Assembly: GCA_951406725.2 (NCBI GenBank) | Contig: OX597818.1 | Coordinates: 118,854,001 to 118,918,000, forward strand | Direction: 5' to 3' | DNA: 64,000 nucleotides | Source of the DNA: Octopus vulgaris | Taxonomy: Eukaryota | Shown: positions 34,862-57,100 of the stretch, piece after piece | Numbering within the stretch: position 1 is the first letter of the stretch | Layout of the letters: each line of letters opens with the position of its first letter | Position numbers and translations under genes: made by a program | The notes under the pieces: generated by a model | What the model was told of the DNA's origin: nothing | Database searches by the model: none | Seen by the model: only the letters and a program-made list of their open reading frames with translations

Positions 34862-36189
<1,328 letters not shown>

Positions 36190-36208
36190 TATATATATAA
36201 ATATATAT

Positions 36209-39200
36209 TTGGATTAACTGTTGAAGTGGACGGACGTCTATTTGTTTCTCTCCCAAGTCAGTAGCAAGCTACACAGCTTCAAAACTAACTGACCTTAAAT
36301 ATATATATATTTGTAACCACGTGTTTGCCTACAAACCCGTAAGTACGTTTTCATTTAACTACAAATTGTTATATACACCTGTTTTTCTTTTAATATCCTC
36401 AAACAACCAAATAATCAAAAACTCACACCCTTAAGAGAGAACATTTATATATATATACACTTCTTTAACTCCCAAGAAAGAATATATATATTTTCAAAAA
36501 TCAAAAGGAAAACAAACAAAAGAAAAACAAACATGACTAACTTGCAGGCCTGCAACAGACGAAATTGGTCTGATAACGAAATTGATGTTTTAATAAACAC
36601 ATGGTTCTCTCTTTCCCAAACAGAAAATCTAAATGTCTTGTGTTTGAATGAGATTGCCGAAAAAACATCACAAGTGGTCAACACACGATCCGTCAAACAG
36701 ATTCGTAGCAAGTTGAAACATATCGAAGTATCTTTCAAACTGATAAGAGGCCATTATGAAAAGCTTCTACATATTTTCACAGTTCAAGAACAACAACAGC
36801 TAGAAAATCAGCAGCCACAACAACAACAACAACAGAATGAGCCACTCCTGGTTCCCAGCACAATGGCTGACCCTAACATCGGTCAAGCACAACAACAACA
36901 ACAACAGCCACAGCAACAAGAACAACAACAGCCACTCCTCAACTCTAGCTTACTAGATGATTCACTAAATGCCAGTATCTTTTCACCGCTCTCACAGCAA
37001 CCACCACAATTATCATCATCATCATCACCACCGCTGCCACCATCGTCTTCTATCACCAAAAATACCAACAGAAAACCAAATAAGAAACCACTGCCCTCTT
37101 CCCCCACATCACCACCTCAATACTACTGCAGTAACAAAAACTTAAAGAAACATAGGAAGCAGAATGCGCCCCCCACGGCACAAACAAGAAATCCCCAAAT
37201 ATGCCGCTATTCACTGCGCCAGAGACTCTGCACAAATAGTGACTGCATCTTCACGCATCTACCCGGCACTAGACGCACTACTGGCCAAGGCCAAAGCACG
37301 CATCCCACAATAACATCAACACCACCAAATAGTAAATCGAAATTCAAAACACACACAACTCGGAGTCCCAAAATCTGCCGGTATTCCCAACGTGAGAGAA
37401 CATGTCTACTGAGTGACTGTCCCTTCACTCATCTTCCAGGGACCCGACGCACAAACAGAAACGGGGCCTCAAGCCAACACACAAACCTGAATAACAATAA
37501 AAATAGAAACACACCATGCTGCAGTAATGCTGGTCCAGTCTTTTCAGGAAGACACAAAAACAACAACAACAAAAGTGGAAACTACAACCCTATCCAACAG
37601 TGCAACCACACCTCCAGCCAAAAACTGCTCCCTAAGCAGGAAAATTCTTTATGCCATGTTGAACATGGCAAAAGAGATACACAAAAACATTCTAGCCATC
37701 ACTCAACACCATCCTATGCTATTACCCCAGTGCACCAATTCCCCACATTGCTGCCACTAACACACACAAAAAATCCAAGCCCCCTGCAACAGTCAAAACC
37801 AGCCACTACACTAACCTCCACATTCCTACTCAATGCACAAGGTGTCAGCCCTTCCATCAATGCACAAAAATGGAAGGTCCAATTCATTGAAGACTGGGTT
37901 GGTAACCATTCACACCACATCCCTTTCTTCATTCTCACTGAGACCCACCTTGACAACTCCCACTTGGAAGCCGAAGTGAGAGTGAAGAATTTCACAACCA
38001 TCCGCGCGGATATCGGCAGGAGGAAGGGTGGAACTGCTATTTTCCTGCATGATTCATTTACGGCAGATGGAAATAGTATATTCTCCAACTACTGTGAATC
38101 AGTCACCGTGCACAACAAAGCCAATGACTGACAGTAATTGGGCTCTATAGGCCGCCCCAAACACCCATACTGTGCTTTAAAGAATGCCTCAACAGCATTA
38201 AGTGCTTTATTCAACAGTGCCATTCTAGCAACATACTCATGATGGGAGACTTCAATCTACCCTGTGTTGACTGGACTACAAACTGTTTGAAACCAAGCAC
38301 TCCCGCCTCAACCGCTGACAAAGAAGCAGCAGAGTCACTTTTCGACTTTACGAATGAGTTTTTCTTGTCCCAACTTGTCCTTGCACCAACAAGACATCAG
38401 AACATTTTGGACCTAGTGTTTAGTAACCACACTAACACTATACATAACGTTACAGTGGAAAAAACCCTTCTTTCAGACCATGACATGGTTCTCTGTAACA
38501 TGAAATTCCACCAGCCGAAAGCTAATCCTAGTGACCTTCCTCCAGCCCACCCATTTGACAACATGGATCTCCATAATGCCAACTGGGATGCAATCAGGAA
38601 CGAGCTATCACATGTTGACTGGTCCTTTACACATACACACATCTCCACCAACCATAAAACATCTTGGCAGATCTTTGTAGACACCGTCACAGACATATGT
38701 GCAAAACACTCCCCACCAAGACCTGTGAACAAAAAGTGCAGAATCCCCCAAAACAGAAAAACCATTATCAGAAAAATACAAAAGAACAAACAAAAAAATT
38801 AACAAACTAAAGTACTGCCAACAGCAACACACACATTCGACGGCTATCGCACTGCTTGAATCCAAAAAATATAACCTCCAACAATGCATGAAGACCCTCA
38901 TCAATAACCAAAGATCAGCTGAGGAGAAGTGGGCCATTGAAAAAATCAAACTCAACCCCAAAGTGTTCTTTTCATTTGCGAGGAAACGCAGGGTCACTGT
39001 CTCCACTGTAGGCCCTCTAATTGATGAAACTGGCACTCTCCAAGATAATGCCAAATCCATGGCCGCGATACTGCAGAAACAATACTGCTCTGTTTTCAGC
39101 AATCCTGATATGGCCGATCTGGGCTGTATCAGTGATGTCAACCCCCAACACACTATATCGGACATAACGTTTAGTGCCCCTGATGTCTTAGCGGCGATAA

Positions 39201-40831
39201 ACGAAATAAAACACAATTCAGCAGTAGGCCCCGATAGGTTCCCTGCTTGTGTCCTGAAGGTGTGTCGACACCAACTTGCATCTCCCCTTGCTAATCTGTG
39301 GAGAAACTCACTGGATGCTGGCTATATTCCTAAAAAACCTTCTGTCCCAGTCTGTTGTCCCAGTTTTCAAAAAGGGAAACAAGTCCCTTGCAGTGAATTA
39401 CCGTCCGATCTCACTCACCTCTCATATCATCAAGGTATTTGAGAGGGTGGTGAGATCTCGAATAACCCAATTTCTGGAAAGCAACAGACGGCTGATCTCC
39501 AACCAACATGGGTTCCGTAATGGAAGGGACTGCCTAACGCAGCTCCTGCATCACTTTGAGGACATTTTGAGAGCTTTGGGAGAGGGCTCCAACACCGATG
39601 TCATCTACCTTGATTTCAGTAAGGCCTTCGACAGGGTCGATCACAAGATCCTATTGAAAAAACTATCCAACATTGGTGTCTCTGGAAAGTTACTGAAATG
39701 GATCAAGTGTTTCCTGACAGACAGATCTCAACATGTTGTAGTTGAAGGGGTAAAATCAAGCCCAGCCAAAGTCAGTAGTGGCGTTCCGCAAGGCACTGTG
39801 CTGGGCCCACTTCTTTTCATCATCTACATTAATGACATTAATGACATCATCAAGCACAGCAACATAAAAATCTTTGCAGATGATTCCAAGCTCCAGAAGA
39901 TAATAAATGAGGCGAGTGACCGGACATGCCTTCAGTCAGATCTACTGGCTGTTATCCAATGGGCAGAAAAAAAATTATGCTGCTGAACGAGGATAAATTT
40001 GAGTTAATCCACTTTGGAAAAGAGGATGCCCTGAAACCCCCATACTCCCTTCCTTCAGGTGAAACTCTCGTGGCATCCGACAACATCAGAGACTTGGGAG
40101 TAATTGTGGACAACAACATAAGCTGGGCCACTCATATAAACACCAAAGTTGACATGGCCCGCAGAATGTGTTCCTGGATTCTCAGAACTTTCCAGTCGAG
40201 AGATATCCACACCATTATCCTTCTCTTCTCCACTTTTGTCCGACCCCACCTTGAATACTGTTGTCCACTGTGGTCTCCCCACACAAACAAAGTATCATAA
40301 AAGTTGAAGCACCTCAAAGGGCAATCACAAAAAAGATAGATGGTATGACAGGCCTCGACTATTGGGGTCGACTAAAAAGCTAAAACTTTATTCTCTCCAA
40401 CGTCGCCGTGAGCGCTACATCATCTGCATGATGTGGAAAATATTCCATCAGCATTGCCCAAATGATGTTGGCATCACCTTTAAGGTACATCCAAGGCTTG
40501 GGCCCCGTGCCATCCGCCCAAAACAAAAATCGCACTCTCATCTCATAACAACAATACGGCACAATTATTTCACCTCAATTGGCCCCGCTCTCTTTAACAT
40601 TACACCAAAACACATTAAAACAGAAACTGACCCTATAGAGTTCAAGATGTCTTTGGACAGATTCCTTCAAGAAATCCCGGATAAACACCCTACACCCGGG
40701 TATGTCTCTGTAAACAATAACTCTCTCCTTGAGTGGGCCATAGTGCCCAAATTCTGACTTGAAAGACTTCACCAGGTGGTGCTATTAAGTTAGACATGGC
40801 CTGGGCCAATAATGGCCGAAACCTATCAAAG
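36209..40831 (+). mobile_element. Family A full-length copy A8 with private substitutions
   Basis: 5' end TTGGATTAACTG; ORF 36533..40757 broken by frameshifts; single TATCAAAG tail unit. Confidence 0.96.
36533..40757 (+). pseudogene. Family A polyprotein (Myb-like, CCCH x2, APE, RT), frameshifted
   Basis: ORF 36533..38131 runs uninterrupted from the Myb-like domain into APE motifs (LLNAQG, FILTETHL); downstream pieces carry MGDFN, SDH and FADD. Confidence 0.88.
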
Positions 40832-41241
<410 letters not shown>

Positions 41242-41590
41242 ATAACTTGGCAAATCACTCACAAAACGTAGAAATTGTTACTTTATAGACGCGTACCTGG
41301 ATATTTGCTTATATATATATCAAGTTTTGACACAAAGATCTCTTTCTGCCGAAATGCACGTGGAATCTTATATATATATAAGTACCCAAATTCCTGTTTA
41401 TATATATACAAATTCTTGTTACTGTTAATTTCGTTATATCTATTATCTATAAATTACCTGTTACTCTGTTTATATATATATATATATATATCTATATATC
41501 CATGCATGTGTGTGTGTGTTAGTAGTAGAATCGTATTGTAGTTTATCTTAAGAGACATTGTCTGTAGCGAAATAAATATATATTGCCATT

Positions 41591-41622
<32 letters not shown>

Positions 41623-42441
41623 CTTTGCTTAAACTGTAAACCTCCTGGCGTGTTTTCTTTCAGCTGTTTTATTATTATTATTATTAGAAGTATAGTCGCA
41701 TATATTAGAAGTATAGTATTAGTTATGTTATAGAAGAATTTGTCTGTTGCGGCGGACAAACGTATATATTCCCTTTTCTCTTTTCCTCTGCTTAGATATA
41801 TATGTATATGTATTGTATATGTATGTGTGTGTATGTATTATATGTATTACAAACTCTGTAAAATCTCTTGGCTTGTTTTCTTTCAGCTGTTTTATTATTA
41901 TCACTTGTTAAATATATGTGTGTGTATATATGTGTGTGTGTTATATATATATGTGTGTATGTATATACTACATATATATATATAAACTCTGTAAAACCTC
42001 CTGGCCTGTTTTCTTTCTTTCTTTTCTTTTTCTTTCAGCTGTTTTATTTTATTTTATTTTTCATTTTTATTATTATTATTGTCTTATAATTTCTTATTAT
42101 TACTTTTGTAATATATGTTTATATATGTTTTGTAATATATGCTTATATATTTTCATTATTATTATTGTCTCTTTATATACTCACTTGTTACTCTTGTCTA
42201 TATATGTGCATGTGCACACGTGTGTACATGTGTGTGTGTGTGTGTATACATATGTATGTCCCAATAGCTTCGTTTAGAATTCTATCTGTCTCTTCAGTTC
42301 TCTCCCTTGCGCCCCTCCTTGGCCCAATAGTCTTTTTAGATCTCTCTGTTGCTGCTTCTCTGTCTCTCCCTTTGCGCTTTCTCTCCTGTCTATCTCAGCT
42401 CTCTCTCTAGAGGCTTTCTCTATCTTCCTTCCAGCACTCAG

Positions 42442-42742
42442 TATCTCCTCTTCCTCTTCTCTCTTGCTCTCTTCTCTTGGCTCCCAATCTCTCCTTAAGT
42501 GCATGGACGCTCTCTTTCTCTATTACCCCCCTACCCCCCCTATTGCACTATTGGATTAATATAACTTAATATAATTAGATAGATAGATAGATAGACAACA
42601 TATCTCTCCTCTTCCTCTTCTCTCCTGCTCTCTTCTCTTGGCTCCCAATCTCTCCTTAAGTACATAGACGCTCTCTTTCTCTATTACCCCCCTACTATTG
42701 GATTAATATAACTTAACATAATTAGATAGATAGATAATATAT
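42442..42742 (+). repeat. ~160-bp direct tandem duplication just upstream of the family B ATG
   Basis: TCTCCTCTTCCTCTTCTCTC...GGCTCCCAATCTCTCCTTAAG...GGATTAATATAACTTAA...AGATAGATAG occurs at ~42442 and ~42601. Confidence 0.9.
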
Positions 42743-42747
42743 CAAGA

Positions 42748-45700
42748 ATGTCCAGAGCTTGGAAACGTGATGAACTGGTGTGGTTCCTGCGAGGATGGCA
42801 ATGCGCTGACGGAGAAAGTCCAAGTAACATAATTGCGGCAGCACTAAAGAACAAAGGATTCAAAAGGACATCAGCACAAATAGAGCGGAAGAGGCAAGAG
42901 TTCGTACGCTCATACGCACTTGTCAGATCGCACATAAACACACTGGATGCCATTTTTAACAGCGAAAAACGCGAACAAAGTAAAGATGGCAAGGATGGAG
43001 ACGTGGGCGCAGATGAGGAGGGTCACCCCCACCTGGTGGACGCCCAGGAAGAAAACTCCAGCGAGAGGCCTGCCCGGGAGGTGAACCCAGGTACGGATGC
43101 TCCTACCGGCTCCAAAAGCCGTGGACATGGAGATGAAGAGGCCAAAAAAAGAGGAAAAACTGAAGCTAAAACTCAGACAAAGCCAAGGGACAAGGCAGCC
43201 AGGGACAGAGGCAAACCTAACTGTCCATATGCCAAAAAGGATGGAAACAAGCAGCGCACACGGGTATGTAGGTTCTACCTGAGAGGTGCCTGCCGGCATG
43301 GAGAGGAAGGTGCAGGCTGCCGCTTTGCACATCCGGGACCCTGCCACAGAAACCAACCACCGAAAGGAAATGGGATGGACCACGCATCACCGCCCCAAAA
43401 CGGAGGTACGCAGATGTGGTGCGTACCACAAACCACCAACGTGTTGTTGAAAGGGCAGCTGCTGAGCAGGAATCTTTTTGTGCATGGCACAAAAGATTGT
43501 ACAGCAGCTAACCTGGCTCCATCAGGCTCAGGCTCGCAGATGGAACTGCCCACGGTTCACAAGACCGCCACAGCAGATGGACCCAGGGTGGACACCACCG
43601 GCAACAGCATACACCTCACCTCGATGCTCCTACTGAACATCAGAGGACTTACTAACACACAGTAACAGGACAAAAGTCCCGTTCCTGAGAGACTTTGTCG
43701 CATGCAATCAAGCCTTATGCATAGCACTCACAGAAACGCATCTGAAACCGGACATAGCAGATGCGGAATTACACATACCACAGCATGTTGTACTACGGAC
43801 CGACAGGAAAGAAAGAAGTCATGGAGGAGTTGCTATGTACATCCGTGGGGACCTCACACCCCAGGTCCTTTTGTCATACTCAAACTCGGTGTGTGACACA
43901 CTAATTGTACACATAAGGCAACTTGATGTAGTTGTGTGTGCTACATATCGCCCTCCAGATGCCCCAAGTCATATGGGCAAGTTTGAGGACTGCCTTTTAA
44001 AAATAGAAGAAGTTCTAACCACATTAGAACAACACATAAGTGTACTTCTCATGGGAGACTTCAATCTACCGAATGTCAGATGGCCCGAGGGCCTTTCTCT
44101 CCCAGGAATGACAAGATGTGAACGAGGACAGGCGAGGTCCCTCCCTGAACCTCACCAACACCCTGTACATGGAGCAAGTAATACTCCAACCAACCAGAGC
44201 GGGTAACACACTGGATCTCTGCTTCACAAATAATATGGATCTCATCCATAATGTGAAAGTGACACCGACACTACTCTCGGATCACAACATGGTAGAGCTG
44301 ACCATGTACGGGCCAAAGAGAGCACGGACATGCAGCCTACAAGAAACCCTCAAAGTCTTTCCAGCTTGAACTTCAATAAGGCAAACTGGAAACAAATTGA
44401 GAAAGAGATCCTCAAACAAAACTGGCCTGAATGTCTCTCCTCGCCGGACATCGACATGATACTTCAACAATTCATGTCTGTAATGCAAGCCATATGCTAC
44501 AAATGTGTCCCAGAGAGAAAGGCCACTGTACACAAGAACAAAATCCCCAGAGAGAGAAAAATTTTAATGAGACGGCGCACAAAAATCTCAAATCGCCTAA
44601 ACAAACAAATTGAAAGCAGTGAAAAGTCCCGCCTGAAAATAAAACTGTTGGAAATTGAAAATTGTCTGCAACTCTCCCATGAGAAGGAAAGAGCAGACAA
44701 AGAAGCCTGGGCTATAGACAACATAAAAACTAACCCCAGAGCTTTCTACAGGTATGCCAAAGAAACAGCTACGGTGCACTGTAGGATAGGGCCACTCCTC
44801 TGAAAAGGATGGCACACTCACAGGAAAACCAATGAGGGTAAGTGAAATACTGAATGAACAATTCAAGAGTGTTTTCACTCCACCCCTTGGGCATTTCCAA
44901 ATCAGCAATCCAACTGACTTTTTTACCACTGCAGATATAGAATCAGAGGCGGCGACGTTAAATTACATCGATATAAAGGAAGATGATGTAATAAAGGCTA
45001 TAGATGAAATGAAAATAGACTCAGCTATTGGCCCCGATGGATTCCCGGCAATCCTCCTAAAAGTATGTAAGAGAGTCTTAGCAAGACCACTGCAGTTCCT
45101 CTTTCAGAGCTTCCTTGCAGCTGGCAAACTTCCAAGAAAACTGAAGGAAGGTAAAATATGCCCTATTCATAAGGGAGGTAGCAGAGCGGAGGCCAAGAAC
45201 TACAGACCTATCTCTCTGACCTCACACATCAGCAAGGTCATGGAACGAATAGTCAGAAGGAAACTAATCACCTTCCTTGAAGAAAATGACTTGCTGCCTG
45301 ACACCCAACATGGTTTCCGACCAGGAAGAAGCTGCTTAACTCAGCTCCTGCAGCACTATGACTGGGTGCTGAAACAACTGCTCAACCACTCAAATGTGGA
45401 AGTCATATCTCGACTTCGCAAAGGCCTTCGATAAAGTCGATCATGGAATGATATGTCACAAACTGCGTGATCTTGGCATAGTTGGAAAACTAGGAGAATG
45501 GTTTCACGACTTTCTGAAGAATAGAAGTCAGGTGGTAGTAGCCAATGGGGCCACTTCCATTAGCACGCAAATAGTGAGCGGTGTTCCACAGGGCACTGTT
45601 TTGGGACCACTACTGTTCATAATGGCCCTCTCAGACATGCCCTCAGCCACGCGGAGAGCCACGATCACAAGTTATGCAGATGATACAAAAGTTTCACAGG

Positions 45701-51537: not shown

Positions 51538-54500
51538 CTTTGATACTTTGATACTTTGATAGGTTTCGGCCATTATTGGCCCAGGCCATGTCTAACTTAA
51601 TAGCACCACCTGGTGAAGTCTTTCAAGTCAGAATTTGGGCACTATGGCCCACTCAAGTAGAGAGTTATTGTTTACAGAGACATATCCGGGTGTAGGGGGT
51701 TTATCCGGGATTTCTTGAAGGAATCTGTCCAAAGACTTCTTGAACCCTATAGGGTCAGTTTCTGTTTTAATGTGTTTTGGTGTAATGTTAAAGAGAGCGG
51801 GGCCAATTGAGGTGAAATAATTGTGCCGTATTGTTGTTATGAGATGAGAGTGCGATTTTTGTTTTGGGCGGATGGCACGGGGCCCAAGCCTTGGATGTAC
51901 CTTAAAGGTGATGCCAACATCATTTGGGCAATGCTGATGGAATATTTTCCACATCATGCAGATGATGTAGCGCTCATGACGACGTTGGAGAGAATAGAGT
52001 TTTAGCTTTTCTAGTCGACCCCAATAGTCGAGGCCTGTCATGCCATCTATCTTTTTTGTGATTGCCCTTTGAGGTGCTTCGACTTTTTTGATACCTTTTA
52101 TTGTGTGGGGAGACCACAGTGGACAACAGTATTCAAGGTGGGGTCGGGCAAAAGTGGAGAAGAGAAGGATAATGGTGTGGATATCTCTCGACTGGAAAGT
52201 TCTGAGAATCCAGGAACACATTCTGCGGGCCATGTCAACTTTGGTGTTTATATGAGTGGCCCAGCTTACGTTGTTGTCCACAATTACTCCCAAGTCTCTG
52301 ATGTTGTTGGACGCCGCGAGAGTTTCACCTGAAGGAAGGGAGTATGGGAGTTTCAGGGCATCCTCTTTTCCAAAGTGGATTAGCTCAAATTTATCCTCGT
52401 TCAGCAGCATATTGTTTTTTTCTGCCCATTGGATAACAGCCAGTAGATCTGACTGAAGGCATGTCCGGTCACTCGCCTCATTTATGACCTTCTGTAGCTT
52501 GGAGTCATCTGCAAAGATTTTTATGTTGCTGTGCTTGATGATGTCATTAATGTCATTAATGTAAATGATGAAAAGAAGTGGGCCCAGCACAGTGCCTTGC
52601 GGAACGCCACTACTGACTTTGGCTGGGCTTGATTTTACCCCTTCAACTACAACATGTTGAGATCTGTCTGTCAGGAAACACTTAATCCATTTCAGTAACT
52701 TTCCAGAGACACCAATGTTGGATAGTTTTTTCAATAGGATCTTGTGATCGACCCTGTCGAAGGCCTTACTGAAATCAAGGTAGATGACATCGGTGTTGGA
52801 GCCCTCTCCCAAAGCTCTCAAAATGTCCTCAAAGTGATGCAGGAGCTGCGTTAGGCAGTCCCTTCCATTACGGAACCCATGTTGGTTGGAGATCAGCCGT
52901 CTGTTGCTTTCCAGAAATTGGGTTATTTGAGATCTCACCACCCTCTCAAATACCTTGATGATATGAGAGGTGAGTGAGATCGGACGGTAATTCACTGCAA
53001 GGGACTTGTTTCCCTTTTTGAAAACTGGGACAACAGACTGGGACAGAAGGTTTTTTGGAATATAGCCAGCATCCAGTGAGTTTCTCCACAGATTAGCAAG
53101 GGGAGATGCAAGTTGGTGTCGACACACCTTCAGGACACAAGCAGGGAACCTATCGGGGCCTACTGCTGAATTGTGTTTTATTTCGTTTATCGCCGCTAAG
53201 ACATCAGGGGCACTAAACGTTATGCCCGATATAGTGTGTTGGGGGTTGACATCACTGATACAGCCCAGATCGGCCATATCAGGATTGCTGAAAACAGAGC
53301 AGTATTGTTTCTGCAGTATCTCGGCCATGGATTTGGCATTATCTTGGAGAGTGCCAGTTTCGTCAATTAGAGGGCCTACAGTGGAGACAGTGACCCTGCG
53401 TTTCCTCGCAAATGAAAAGAACACTTTGGGGTTGAGTTTGATTTTTTCAATGGCCCACTTCTCCTCAGCTGATCTTTGGTTATTGATGAGGGACTTCATG
53501 CATTGTTGGAGGTTATATTTTTTGGATTCAAGCAGTGCGATAGCCGTCGAATGTGTGTGTTGCTGTTGGCAGTACTTTAGTTTGTTAATTTTTTTGTTTG
53601 TTCTTTTTATTTTTCTGATAATGGTTTTTCTGTTTTGGGGGATTCTGCACTTTTTGTTCACAGGTCTTGGTGGGGAGTGTTTTGCACATATGTCTGTGAC
53701 GGTGTCTACAAAGATCTGCCAAGATGTTTTATGGTTGGTGGAGATGTGTGTATGTGTAAAGGACCAGTCAACATTTGATAGCTCGTTCCTGATTGCATCC
53801 CAGTTGGCTTTATGGAGATCCATGTTGTCAAATGGGTGGGCTGGAGGAAGGTCACTAGGATTAGCTTTCGGCTGGTGGAATTTCATGTTACAGAGAACCA
53901 TGTCATGGTCTGAAAGAAGGGTTTTTTCCACTGTAACGTTATGTATAGTGTTAGTGTGGTTACTAAACACTAGGTCCAAAATGTTCTGATGTCTTGTTGG
54001 TGCAAGGACAAGTTGGGACAAGAAAAACTCATTCGTAAAGTCGAAAAGTGACTCTGCTGCTTCTTTGTCAGCGGTTGAGGCGGGAGTGCTTGGTTTCAAA
54101 CAGTTTGTAGTCCAGTCAACACAGGGTAGATTGAAGTCTCCCATCATGAGTATGTTGCTAGAATGGCACTGTTGAATAAAGCACTTAATGCTGTTGAGGC
54201 ATTCTTTAAAGCACAGTATGGGTGTTTGGGGCGGCCTATAGAGCCCAATTACTGTCAGATCATTGGCTTTGTTGTGCACGGTGACTGATTCACAGTAGCC
54301 GTTGGAGAATATACTATTTCCATCTGCCGTAAATGAATCATGCAGGAAAATGGCAGTTCCACCCTTCCTCCTGCCGATACGATCCGCGCGGATGGTTGTG
54401 AAATTCTTCACTCTCACTTCGGCTTCCAAGTGGGAGTTGTCAAGGTGGGTCTCAGTGAGAATGAAGAAAGGGATGTGGTGTGAATGGTTACCAACCCAGT

Positions 54501-56186
54501 CTTCAATGAATTGGACCTTCCATTTTTGTGCATTGATGGAAGGGCTGACACCTTGTGCATTGAGTAGGAATGTGGAGGTTAGTGTAGTGGCTGGTTTTGA
54601 CTGTTGCAGGGGGCTTGGATTTTTTGTGTGTGTTAGTGGCAGCAATGTGGGGAATTGGTGCACTGGGGTAATAGCATAGGATGGTGTTGAGTGATGGCTA
54701 GAATGTTTTTGTGTATCTCTTTTGCCATGTTCAACATGGCTAAAAAAGAATTTTCCTGCTTAGGGAGCAGTTTTTGGCTGGAGGTGTGGTTGCACTGTTG
54801 GATAGGGTTGTAGTTTCCACTTTTGTTGTTGTTGTTTTTGTGTCTTCCTGAAAAGACTGGACCAGCATTACTGCAGCATGGTGTGTTTCTATTTTTATTG
54901 TTATTCAGGTTTGTGTGTTGGCTCGAGGCCCCGTTTCTGTTTGTGCGTCGGGTCCCTGGAAGATGAGTGAAGGGACAGTCACTCAGTAGACATGTTCTCT
55001 CACGTTGGGAATACCGGCAGATTTTGGGACTCCGAGTTGTGTGTGTTTTGAATTTCGATTTACTATTTGGTGGTGTTGATGTTATTGTGGGATGCGTGCT
55101 TTGGCCTTGGCCAGTAGTGCGTCTAGTGCCGGGTAGATGCGTGAAGATGCAGTCACTATTTGTGCAGAGTCTCTGGCGCAGTGAATAGCGGCATATTTGG
55201 GGATTTCTTGTTTGTGCCGTGGGGGGCGCATTCTGCTTCCTATGTTTCTTTAAGTTTTTGTTACTGCAGTAGTATTGAGGTGGTGATGTGGGGGAAGAGG
55301 GCAGTGGTTTCTTATTTGGTTTTCTGTTGGTATTTTTGGTGATAGAAGACGATGGTGGCAGCGGTGGTGATGATGATGATGATAATTGTGGTGGTTGCTG
55401 TGAGAGCGGTGAAAAGATACTGGCATTTAGTGAATCGTCTAGTAAGCTAGAGTTGAGGAGTGGCTGTTGTTGTTCTTGTTGCTGTGGCTGTTGTTGTTGT
55501 TGTTGTGCCTGACCGATGTCAGGGTCAGCCATTGTGTTGGGAACCAGGAGTGGCTCATTCTGTTGTTGTTGTTGTTGTGGCTGCTGATTTTCTAGCTGTT
55601 GTTGTTCTTGAACTGTGAAAATATGTAGAAGCTTTTCATAATGGCCTCTTATCAGTTTGAAAGATACTTCGATATGTTTCAACTTGCTACGAATCTGTTT
55701 GACGGATCGTGTGTTGACCACTTGTGATGTTTTTTCGGCAATCTCATTCAAACACAAGACATTTAGATTTTCTGTTTGGGAAAGAGAGAGCCATGTGTTT
55801 ATTAAAACATCAATTTCGTTATCAGACCAATTTCGTCTGTTGCAGGCCTGCAAGTTAGTCATGTTTGTTTTTCTTTTGTTTGTTTTCCTTTTGATTTTTG
55901 AAAATATATATATTCTTTCTTGGAAGTTAAAGAAGTGTATATATATATAAATGTTCTCTCTTAAGGGTGTGAGTTTTTGATTATTTGGTTGTTTGAGGAT
56001 ATTAAAAGAAAAACAGGTGTATATAACAATTTGTAGTTAAATGAAAACGTACTTACGGGTTTGTAGGCAAACACGTGGTTACAAATATATATATATTTAA
56101 GGTCAGTTAGTTTTGAAGCTGTGTAGCTTGCTACTGACTCGGGAGAGAAACAAATAGACGTCCGTCCAGTTCAACAGTTAATCCAA
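51538..56186 (-). mobile_element. Family A full-length copy A9 (~4.65 kb), nearly intact
   Basis: 5' UTR ~325 bp; ORFs 54633..55862 and 51628..54663; tail (TATCAAAG)3. Confidence 0.97.
51628..55862 (-). CDS. Family A polyprotein (~1410 aa): Myb-like, CCCH x2, APE endonuclease, RT; one homopolymer frameshift at ~54745
   Basis: 409-aa and 1011-aa ORFs are split only by an A6 run that is A4 and in frame in copy A1; APE catalytic motifs (ETHL, GDFN, SDH) and RT FADD are intact. Confidence 0.88.

Positions 56187-57100
<914 letters not shown>

Follow-up and report, generated by a model that had tools for sequence, protein, structure and literature searches.

A 64,000-nucleotide stretch of the Octopus vulgaris genome (assembly GCA_951406725.2, contig OX597818.1, positions 118,854,001 to 118,918,000 of the forward strand; hereafter the window) carries a 4.65-kb long interspersed nuclear element (LINE), here termed family A, as four long and several truncated copies that are ~98-99.9% identical and embedded in (TA)n arrays; the host genome measures 2.8 Gb. 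One copy drew attention through its open reading frame (ORF) at 36533-38131 (+), whose 532-aa translation comprises a Myb-like N-terminus, a Q/S/P linker, two CCCH fingers and the start of an apurinic-type endonuclease (APE) before a stop. An initial annotation read this as a single ORF with Myb and CCCH domains fused to APE and reverse transcriptase (RT). The predicted domains hold, but the single ORF does not: family A has two overlapping ORFs, and the second, which lacks an AUG, is likely to be reached by a -1 slip at a T TTT TTA heptamer, as judged from sequence comparison. Family A features in the window are:

36200..40834 (+), the flagged copy, full-length but broken, sharing 98.7-98.9% identity with those at 1-4306 and 51538-56195
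36557..36751 (+), predicted Myb/SANT-like domain (Myb_DNA-bind_4, trihelix-type), ORF1 residues 9-73, from Pfam, ESM Atlas and AlphaFold2 (AF2)
37202..37258 (+), predicted CCCH finger 1, exact C-X8-C-X4-C-X3-H spacing, from sequence; ORF1 relatives carry the same finger
37376..37432 (+), predicted CCCH finger 2, same exact spacing, a local duplicate of finger 1, from sequence
37636..37669 (+), ORF1/ORF2 junction of the flagged copy; a net loss of 2 nt has damaged its slippery site and brings ORF1 into the frame of APE
37826..38131 (+), 5' portion of APE, cut off by a frameshift and a stop
1..4306 (-), copy with a T-run two shorter and an intact in-frame Myb-CCCH-APE-RT ORF of 1410 aa, extending beyond the window edge (locus L050)
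8925..13554 (+), full-length but broken copy with a T-run five shorter
51538..56195 (-), intact two-ORF copy showing the majority layout of the family
54633..55862 (-), canonical ORF1 of that copy, 409 aa (Myb, Q/S/P linker, two CCCH fingers, SFL motif, helical tail)
51628..54747 (-), canonical ORF2 (APE-RT) in the -1 frame; counted from the heptamer it has 1039 codons, and no Met occurs before codon 200, well inside APE
54741..54747 (-), candidate site of the -1 frameshift: the slippery heptamer T TTT TTA, read in the phase of ORF1
54716..54749 (-), predicted hairpin enclosing the heptamer (RNA fold z -3.07; 0/200 shuffles as stable)
about 54735-54686 (-), predicted alternative stem, its start 5 nt past the heptamer

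The Myb/SANT and CCCH calls stand for family A ORF1 as predicted domains. The N-terminal motif quoted in the initial annotation is present, and Pfam PF13837 matches residues 9-73 of the whole flagged ORF with E 4.9e-5 and 24.1 bits, under the cut-off of 27, while isolated residues 1-95 of genome copy L023 reach 28.7 bits. Isolated domains of the sister family C (28.1 bits) and of protein P0007 (31.7 bits) also exceed the cut-off; whole proteins fall below it, and the distant family B scores 17.7 bits. An HMMER scan returned three relatives of the Myb domain, one at 31.7 bits, and ESM Atlas placed the domain among Myb/SANT clusters at 0.87, with the ten best named matches all from one clan, which we treat as a lead only. 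An AF2 model built on a 5-sequence alignment has helices at 14-30, 35-49 and 54-83 (pLDDT 70, pTM 0.49); in an earlier model made without an alignment, two helices were merged (pLDDT 67). Weighing against a Myb fold, Foldseek against the PDB found no match for either model, and a PDB sequence search with the domain gave nothing below E 0.075, only coiled-coil noise. The two duplicated fingers are present with the exact spacing that had been reported, and their Nab2-type zf-CCCH profile matches lie below the cut-off (E 0.006-0.013).

The layout of the element was read from a genome sample of 40 family A copies, consisting of the window's first copy and 39 from the best 40/300 candidate matches. 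At the ORF1/ORF2 junction, 24 copies read TCT TTT TTA GCC, six have lost two bases and are in frame, six have lost one, three have lost three and one lies outside this pattern. Copies with six Ts have an ORF1 of 409 aa that is overlapped by ORF2 in the -1 frame, which opens after a stop four codons before the heptamer. Both ORFs are open in 12/34 evaluated copies with six Ts, and intact fusions number 2/40. Six Ts also appear in short-read contigs of 8/8 runs from 7 studies; such contigs display the majority form only, and runs guessed to be RNA were used for the junction sequence only. The accurate majority sequence thus carries a frame change before APE, contrary to the single reading frame first described. 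For the flagged copy itself, which differs from L023 by 42 substitutions and 9 indel events, contigs of 4/4 runs have two extra bases at the junction. Its ORF ends within APE, after two 3-nt deletions and one 1-nt deletion, and never reaches RT. The statement that the Myb region is in frame with APE in three of four copies is correct for the junction, yet an intact Myb-APE-RT fusion exists in the window only in the copy at 1-4306: the copy at 8925, read from the ATG at 9234, loses its frame after 31 aa, so that its Myb region does not run in frame into APE.

These counts bear on the proposal that the active element is one R2-like Myb-CCCH-APE-RT ORF and that two-ORF copies are errors or decay. 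Consistent with it are the in-frame junctions of three long window copies, the two genome copies intact at 1410 aa, and the occurrence of fused copies in family C (L091) and at a JGI metagenome locus (L069). However, a single-ORF family layout is largely refuted by the predominance of six Ts in the assembly and in all short-read runs, and by the lack of a single-nucleotide polymorphism (SNP) group of its own: no private substitution unites the in-frame copies, which are interspersed with six-T copies in SNP groups. ORF1 relatives moreover maintain the ORF1 tail and stop (P0006), and the 28 best APE matches measure 803-1190 aa, none near 1400, within a search range of 728-2317 aa. We regard the one-ORF model as extremely improbable and infer that the single-ORF copies arose by recurrent deletions at the T-run rather than as a separate lineage. 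One caution applies to the two-ORF layout, since a sample of the best-scoring 40/300 candidates favours young full-length copies.

How ORF2 is translated was addressed through relatives of family A, of which three further families occur in the same genome:

42730-46673 (+), 47299-50498 (-) and 14578-17558 (+) of the window, and locus L278: family B, an APE-RT LINE only distantly related to A and ending in an (ATCA)n tail
G000:C15:21611640-21616940 (locus L093): family C, sister of A, with predicted Myb and four CCCH-type fingers and an A-like 3' untranslated region (UTR) core
G000:C5:3059900-3065600 (locus L112): family D, whose ORF1 is PHD-like; it shares the heptamer, and has an ORF2 lacking an AUG and a (GAAAT)n tail

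Within the -1 overlap, the junction T TTT TTA follows the X XXY YYZ scheme and sits in the phase of the 0 frame. This is the form of -1 slippery heptamers, with U_UUU_UUA of HIV-1 as precedent. A profile search, covering lengths up to 753 aa, recovered 120 stand-alone ORF1 relatives, mostly of 400-450 aa, three of them named from the ctenophore Mnemiopsis leidyi. The last finger motif is present in 101/123 ORF1 proteins examined, and in 94/101 of these a Phe-Leu pair follows 23-97 residues further, after a variable residue. Where nucleotide sequence was compared, T TTT TTA stands in phase in 13/13 JGI metagenome loci, L071 among them (about eight families by eye), in 8/9 family D loci and, as a plain six-T run, in 24/31 family C loci, and family B has T TTT TTG in 22/29. 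The -1 frame opens 1-14 codons upstream of the heptamer in the JGI loci and families B, C and D, and continues into APE in 10/13 JGI loci; in the remainder it is broken before the ETWL motif (L066), cut by the contig end (L064) or fused through a later indel (L069). A/C, the JGI group, B and D form four separate deep branches in an APE tree that covers only the families and relatives of this study, without named reference elements. TTT TTA codons occur at 0/28 other Phe-Leu pairs, and their chance occurrence per family, from its own codon usage, is 0.008-0.04; since the families are related, multiplying these chances would exaggerate the evidence. As far as these alignments reach, the heptamer is conserved at the codon level across distant LINE families. 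Because it lies at the same place in relatives and its codons are absent from the 28 other Phe-Leu pairs, a Myb-CCCH-APE-RT fusion is probably made, by frameshifting, and we consider ribosomal -1 frameshifting at T TTT TTA highly probable.

Some observations weigh against such a shift. A heptamer ending in G, as in family B, is a less usual form; a Met precedes APE in the -1 frame of families B and C and of JGI locus L070; and the most stable fold in families A and B buries the heptamer. The Met before APE would suit an independent start of ORF2 by non-AUG initiation, re-initiation or internal entry, the Phe-Leu pair being retained for the sake of the ORF1 protein. AUG-independent ORF2 initiation has been regarded as likely for mammalian L1 (PMC5009743), and stop-start coupling is described in SART1 (PMC3894237). 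Yet families A and D and five JGI families have no Met ahead of the first APE Asn, the ORF1 stop lies 35-86 codons beyond the start of the -1 frame rather than adjoining an AUG, and selection at the protein level could not fix TTT TTA codons and the preceding T over four deep branches. An independent start therefore appears to us a remote alternative to the -1 shift.

Evidence for a stimulatory RNA structure is mixed. The JGI group shows a stem beginning about 9 nt behind the heptamer with compensatory changes (3/8 pairs altered on both sides), its covariation of 0.347 exceeding the 0.194 of shuffled and 0.03-0.18 of slid alignments, and the 5' arm of the downstream stem ranks in the top 8% of windows at 9/11 loci, with unremarkable energies. 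Against a role of this stem, its energies are modest (z +0.6 to -2.4), it was derived from the same related sequences, its family A counterpart is out of register, and families C and D show it only weakly. On balance, the chance that a stem 5-10 nt downstream acts as frameshift stimulator seems about even.

The T-run itself is unstable. It is shortened in 17/43 family A copies versus 10/344 at eight A6 runs (Fisher p 9e-12) and changed in 6/28 family B copies, whereas family C has 0/28 losses and two gains and family D 0/8 losses. Among families A-D, T loss is thus confined to A and B, the two with a heptamer-burying hairpin, and shortened runs may reflect slippage at the hairpin base during copying (reverse transcription) or, in part, assembly error. 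Such a hotspot could also indicate that the frame changes at the RNA level, with RNA polymerase (or RT) slipping on the U-run and rare in-frame transcripts favoured in cis; the frame is restored by 8/17 family A changes (-2, -5) and by both insertions among 28 family C copies. However, 26/43 family A copies were inserted with six Ts retained, all family B changes are -1 and do not restore the frame, and the strict X XXY YYZ phase with a terminal A fits tRNA slippage better than a plain homopolymer would. RNA-level slippage is, in our estimate, a very unlikely substitute for ribosomal frameshifting.

Two further observations concern this junction. In-frame fusions arose independently elsewhere, by one added T in L091 (family C, 1439-aa frame) and by an indel downstream of the heptamer in JGI L069. 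The 3' UTR of L023 repeats the 7 bases making up the 3' arm of the junction hairpin and could pair just behind the heptamer, although this pairing did not stand out significantly from that of other query windows. A general long-range pairing between the 3' end of the element and the region behind the heptamer is not supported: the family A 8-bp complement ranks 80/393 among query windows and 0/78 among target windows, and across 8 elements the top 5% of query windows was reached only in L063 and L069.

Based on the -1 shift, we propose that most ribosomes would stop at codon 409 and yield an abundant RNA-packaging ORF1 protein, while a minority would slip at U UUU UUA and produce a little 1411-aa Myb-CCCH-APE-RT fusion, which would place Myb and CCCH in cis with the endonuclease. 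The CCCH fingers may bind RNA, and Myb may tether the complex to chromatin or DNA, as a PHD-like module would in relatives; APE would then nick AT-rich DNA, with the repeat tail pairing at TA. A heptamer fixed at the codon level in distant animal LINEs bears on how LINEs translate ORF2. If the slip is real, ORF1 domains travel on the enzyme in cis, so that ORF1 modules such as PHD and Myb would have to be reread as candidates for target choice, and the arrangement would offer a natural template for targeting LINEs of the APE type. A further caution is that T-run deletions here can produce consensus elements that look "single-ORF" but are artefacts.

The N-terminal module varies among these elements. 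A PHD-like Cys cluster precedes the fingers in marine relatives and in family D (a weak PF00628 match in the latter), and in families A, B and C the predicted Myb takes the place of this module. Family B ORF1, of 296 aa, has Myb and CCCH, and its T TTT TTG junction lies in a hairpin. Its Myb is homologous to that of family A (HH probability 92%) whereas the APEs of A and B are not sisters. A shared Myb on such distant APEs points to an exchange of ORF1 or to its repeated loss; one origin is also compatible with the tree.

(TA)n arrays lie on both sides of the flagged copy:

34862..36208 (no strand), (TA)n array on its 5' side, containing a 155-bp 3' fragment of family A (35861-36015)
40823..41241 (+), its (ATCAAAGT)n 3' tail, passing into a (TA)n array

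Genome-wide, TA arrays flank 35/38 family A 3' ends (19/26 in a second 3'-end sample) and 28/40 5' ends, against a background of 4.4% measured in 20 x 10 kb. The preference of family A is real, and with nearly all copies in a single repeat type the family shares this trait with microsatellite-specific LINEs. Family B has TA-array 3' flanks in 26/28 cases (2/30 loci unscored; L226 was scored negative though TA follows), family C in 12/30 and the Myb-less family D in 7/27, about sixfold enrichment, with joins mostly at TA dinucleotides. All four families exceed the background, and C and D do not differ (Fisher p 0.40). Target-site duplications are unreadable inside TA arrays, and the Myb-less condition is represented by one scored family. 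The initial annotation had assigned (TA)n recognition to the Myb domain. A Myb carried in cis on the fusion and reading (TA)n DNA as the main cause of the preference would explain why Myb families A and B lie far above D and background, and why they have a homologous Myb despite distant APEs; PMC2868851 describes an engineered fusion of Myb and APE that can be directed to repeats. Targeting by Myb is unproven, however, because D is also enriched without Myb and the Myb family C only weakly so, and survival in harmless sites or TA expansion after insertion are other possible sources of TA flanks. We consider Myb a doubtful main cause. The preference most likely stems mainly from the endonuclease and 3' tail pairing, and Myb would at most sharpen it, itself a tentative suggestion. 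The broader proposal, that an animal CR1-type branch generally makes its APE-RT as a -1 fusion with an N-terminal PHD-like or Myb unit as swappable aiming module, and that Myb steers insertion into (TA)n, strikes us as unlikely in this full form.

Family A ORF2 encodes APE followed by RT, with PF03372/PF14529 and PF00078 above cut-off, and ends about 220 aa past RT with no further Pfam domain and no C-terminal restriction-like endonuclease; neither RNase H nor a C-terminal zinc knuckle gave a Pfam match at E<=1. Together with the (ATCAAAGT)n short-tandem-repeat tail and 5'-truncated copies (3' fragments in the window), which are CR1-like traits, this indicates that family A is probably a young APE-RT LINE of the CR1 lineage, placed by domains and tail without a tree of reference elements. 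R2 elements have N-terminal zinc fingers and Myb, one ORF and a C-terminal restriction-like endonuclease, and the TRE elements of Dictyostelium belong to an L1-like clade. Should the fusion be made, family A would resemble R2 in that a single polypeptide carries a Myb-type domain ahead of RT, but the R2-like architecture first proposed gives way to two ORFs, an N-terminal APE, CCCH fingers following Myb, and targeting that is loose instead of confined to one site. With retroviral gag-pol it has in common the heptamer and its phase, and would share the economy of an abundant RNA-binding protein and a rare enzyme fusion; unlike gag-pol, it lacks long terminal repeats (LTRs) and its candidate stimulator is weaker and variable, and Pfam revealed no protease to cleave the fusion.

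In the accessible portions of PMC4120745, Jockey-superfamily ORF1s are sorted into types I-V, and Table 1 lists RRM, CCHC, PHD, Tnp22, esterase and zf/lz modules. Family A agrees with the CR1-lineage LINEs described there in its APE-RT ORF2, tandem-repeat tail, 5' truncation and modular ORF1 with swapped N-terminal readers, and PHD-bearing CR1-lineage ORF1s resemble those of family D and the marine relatives; Myb, CCCH and frameshift have 0 occurrences each in the text available. The Myb and CCCH combination matches none of types I-IV (RRM/CCHC, Tnp22, PHD, esterase) and would fall in the unclassified type V. The Dictyostelium elements TRE5-A and TRE3-A are non-LTR elements of the APE type that like family A have overlapping ORFs (partial texts of PMC5911963 and PMC5633606). 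A -1 frameshift is stated to be necessary for their ORF2 (PMC5911963), and TRE5-A ORF1p is implicated in choosing the target (both sources). Unlike family A, these elements are amoebal and target tRNA genes via TFIIIB, with no Myb or CCCH reported in the same portions. Elsewhere, to judge from the available sections, +1 shifting or re-initiation was suggested for Paramecium elements (PMC5405496); a frameshifting review names HeT-A, which needs a frameshift, as its sole non-LTR element and leans against recoding for L1 (PMC5009743); and ORF2 initiation in LINEs is treated as open, frameshifting not being listed (PMC3894237). The text seen of PMC10294476, whose mollusc LINE libraries sit in supplements, contains 0 matches to frameshift or myb. 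The literature searched, which excluded Repbase Reports and most subscription journals, held no Myb/CCCH ORF1 or slippery -1 site in CR1-type LINEs. For the -1 frameshift itself, precedent exists in the Dictyostelium TRE elements.

Other searches were less productive: a pattern search of viral contigs gave 8 matches, none confirmed; a word-indexed search with the CCCH region gave no match and ESM Atlas with the whole ORF1 no usable match; and a full HMMER scan returned 11 proteins, 2 of them unrelated multi-CCCH proteins. The window holds several further features of note. A family A fragment at 22566-24483 ends directly at a 100-N assembly gap (24484-24583). The neighbouring copies at 8925-13554 and 14578-17558 show many small indels and few substitutions (20 indel events and 11 substitutions in the former, of family A; 245 gap positions in the latter, of family B), which may reflect poor local assembly. 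Two of the three long family B copies are 5'-truncated exactly at the junction hairpin. Finally, an older repeat occurs twice in inverted orientation (41421-43297 and 18774-22145, about 70-80% alike), adjoined by degraded family B-like sequence.

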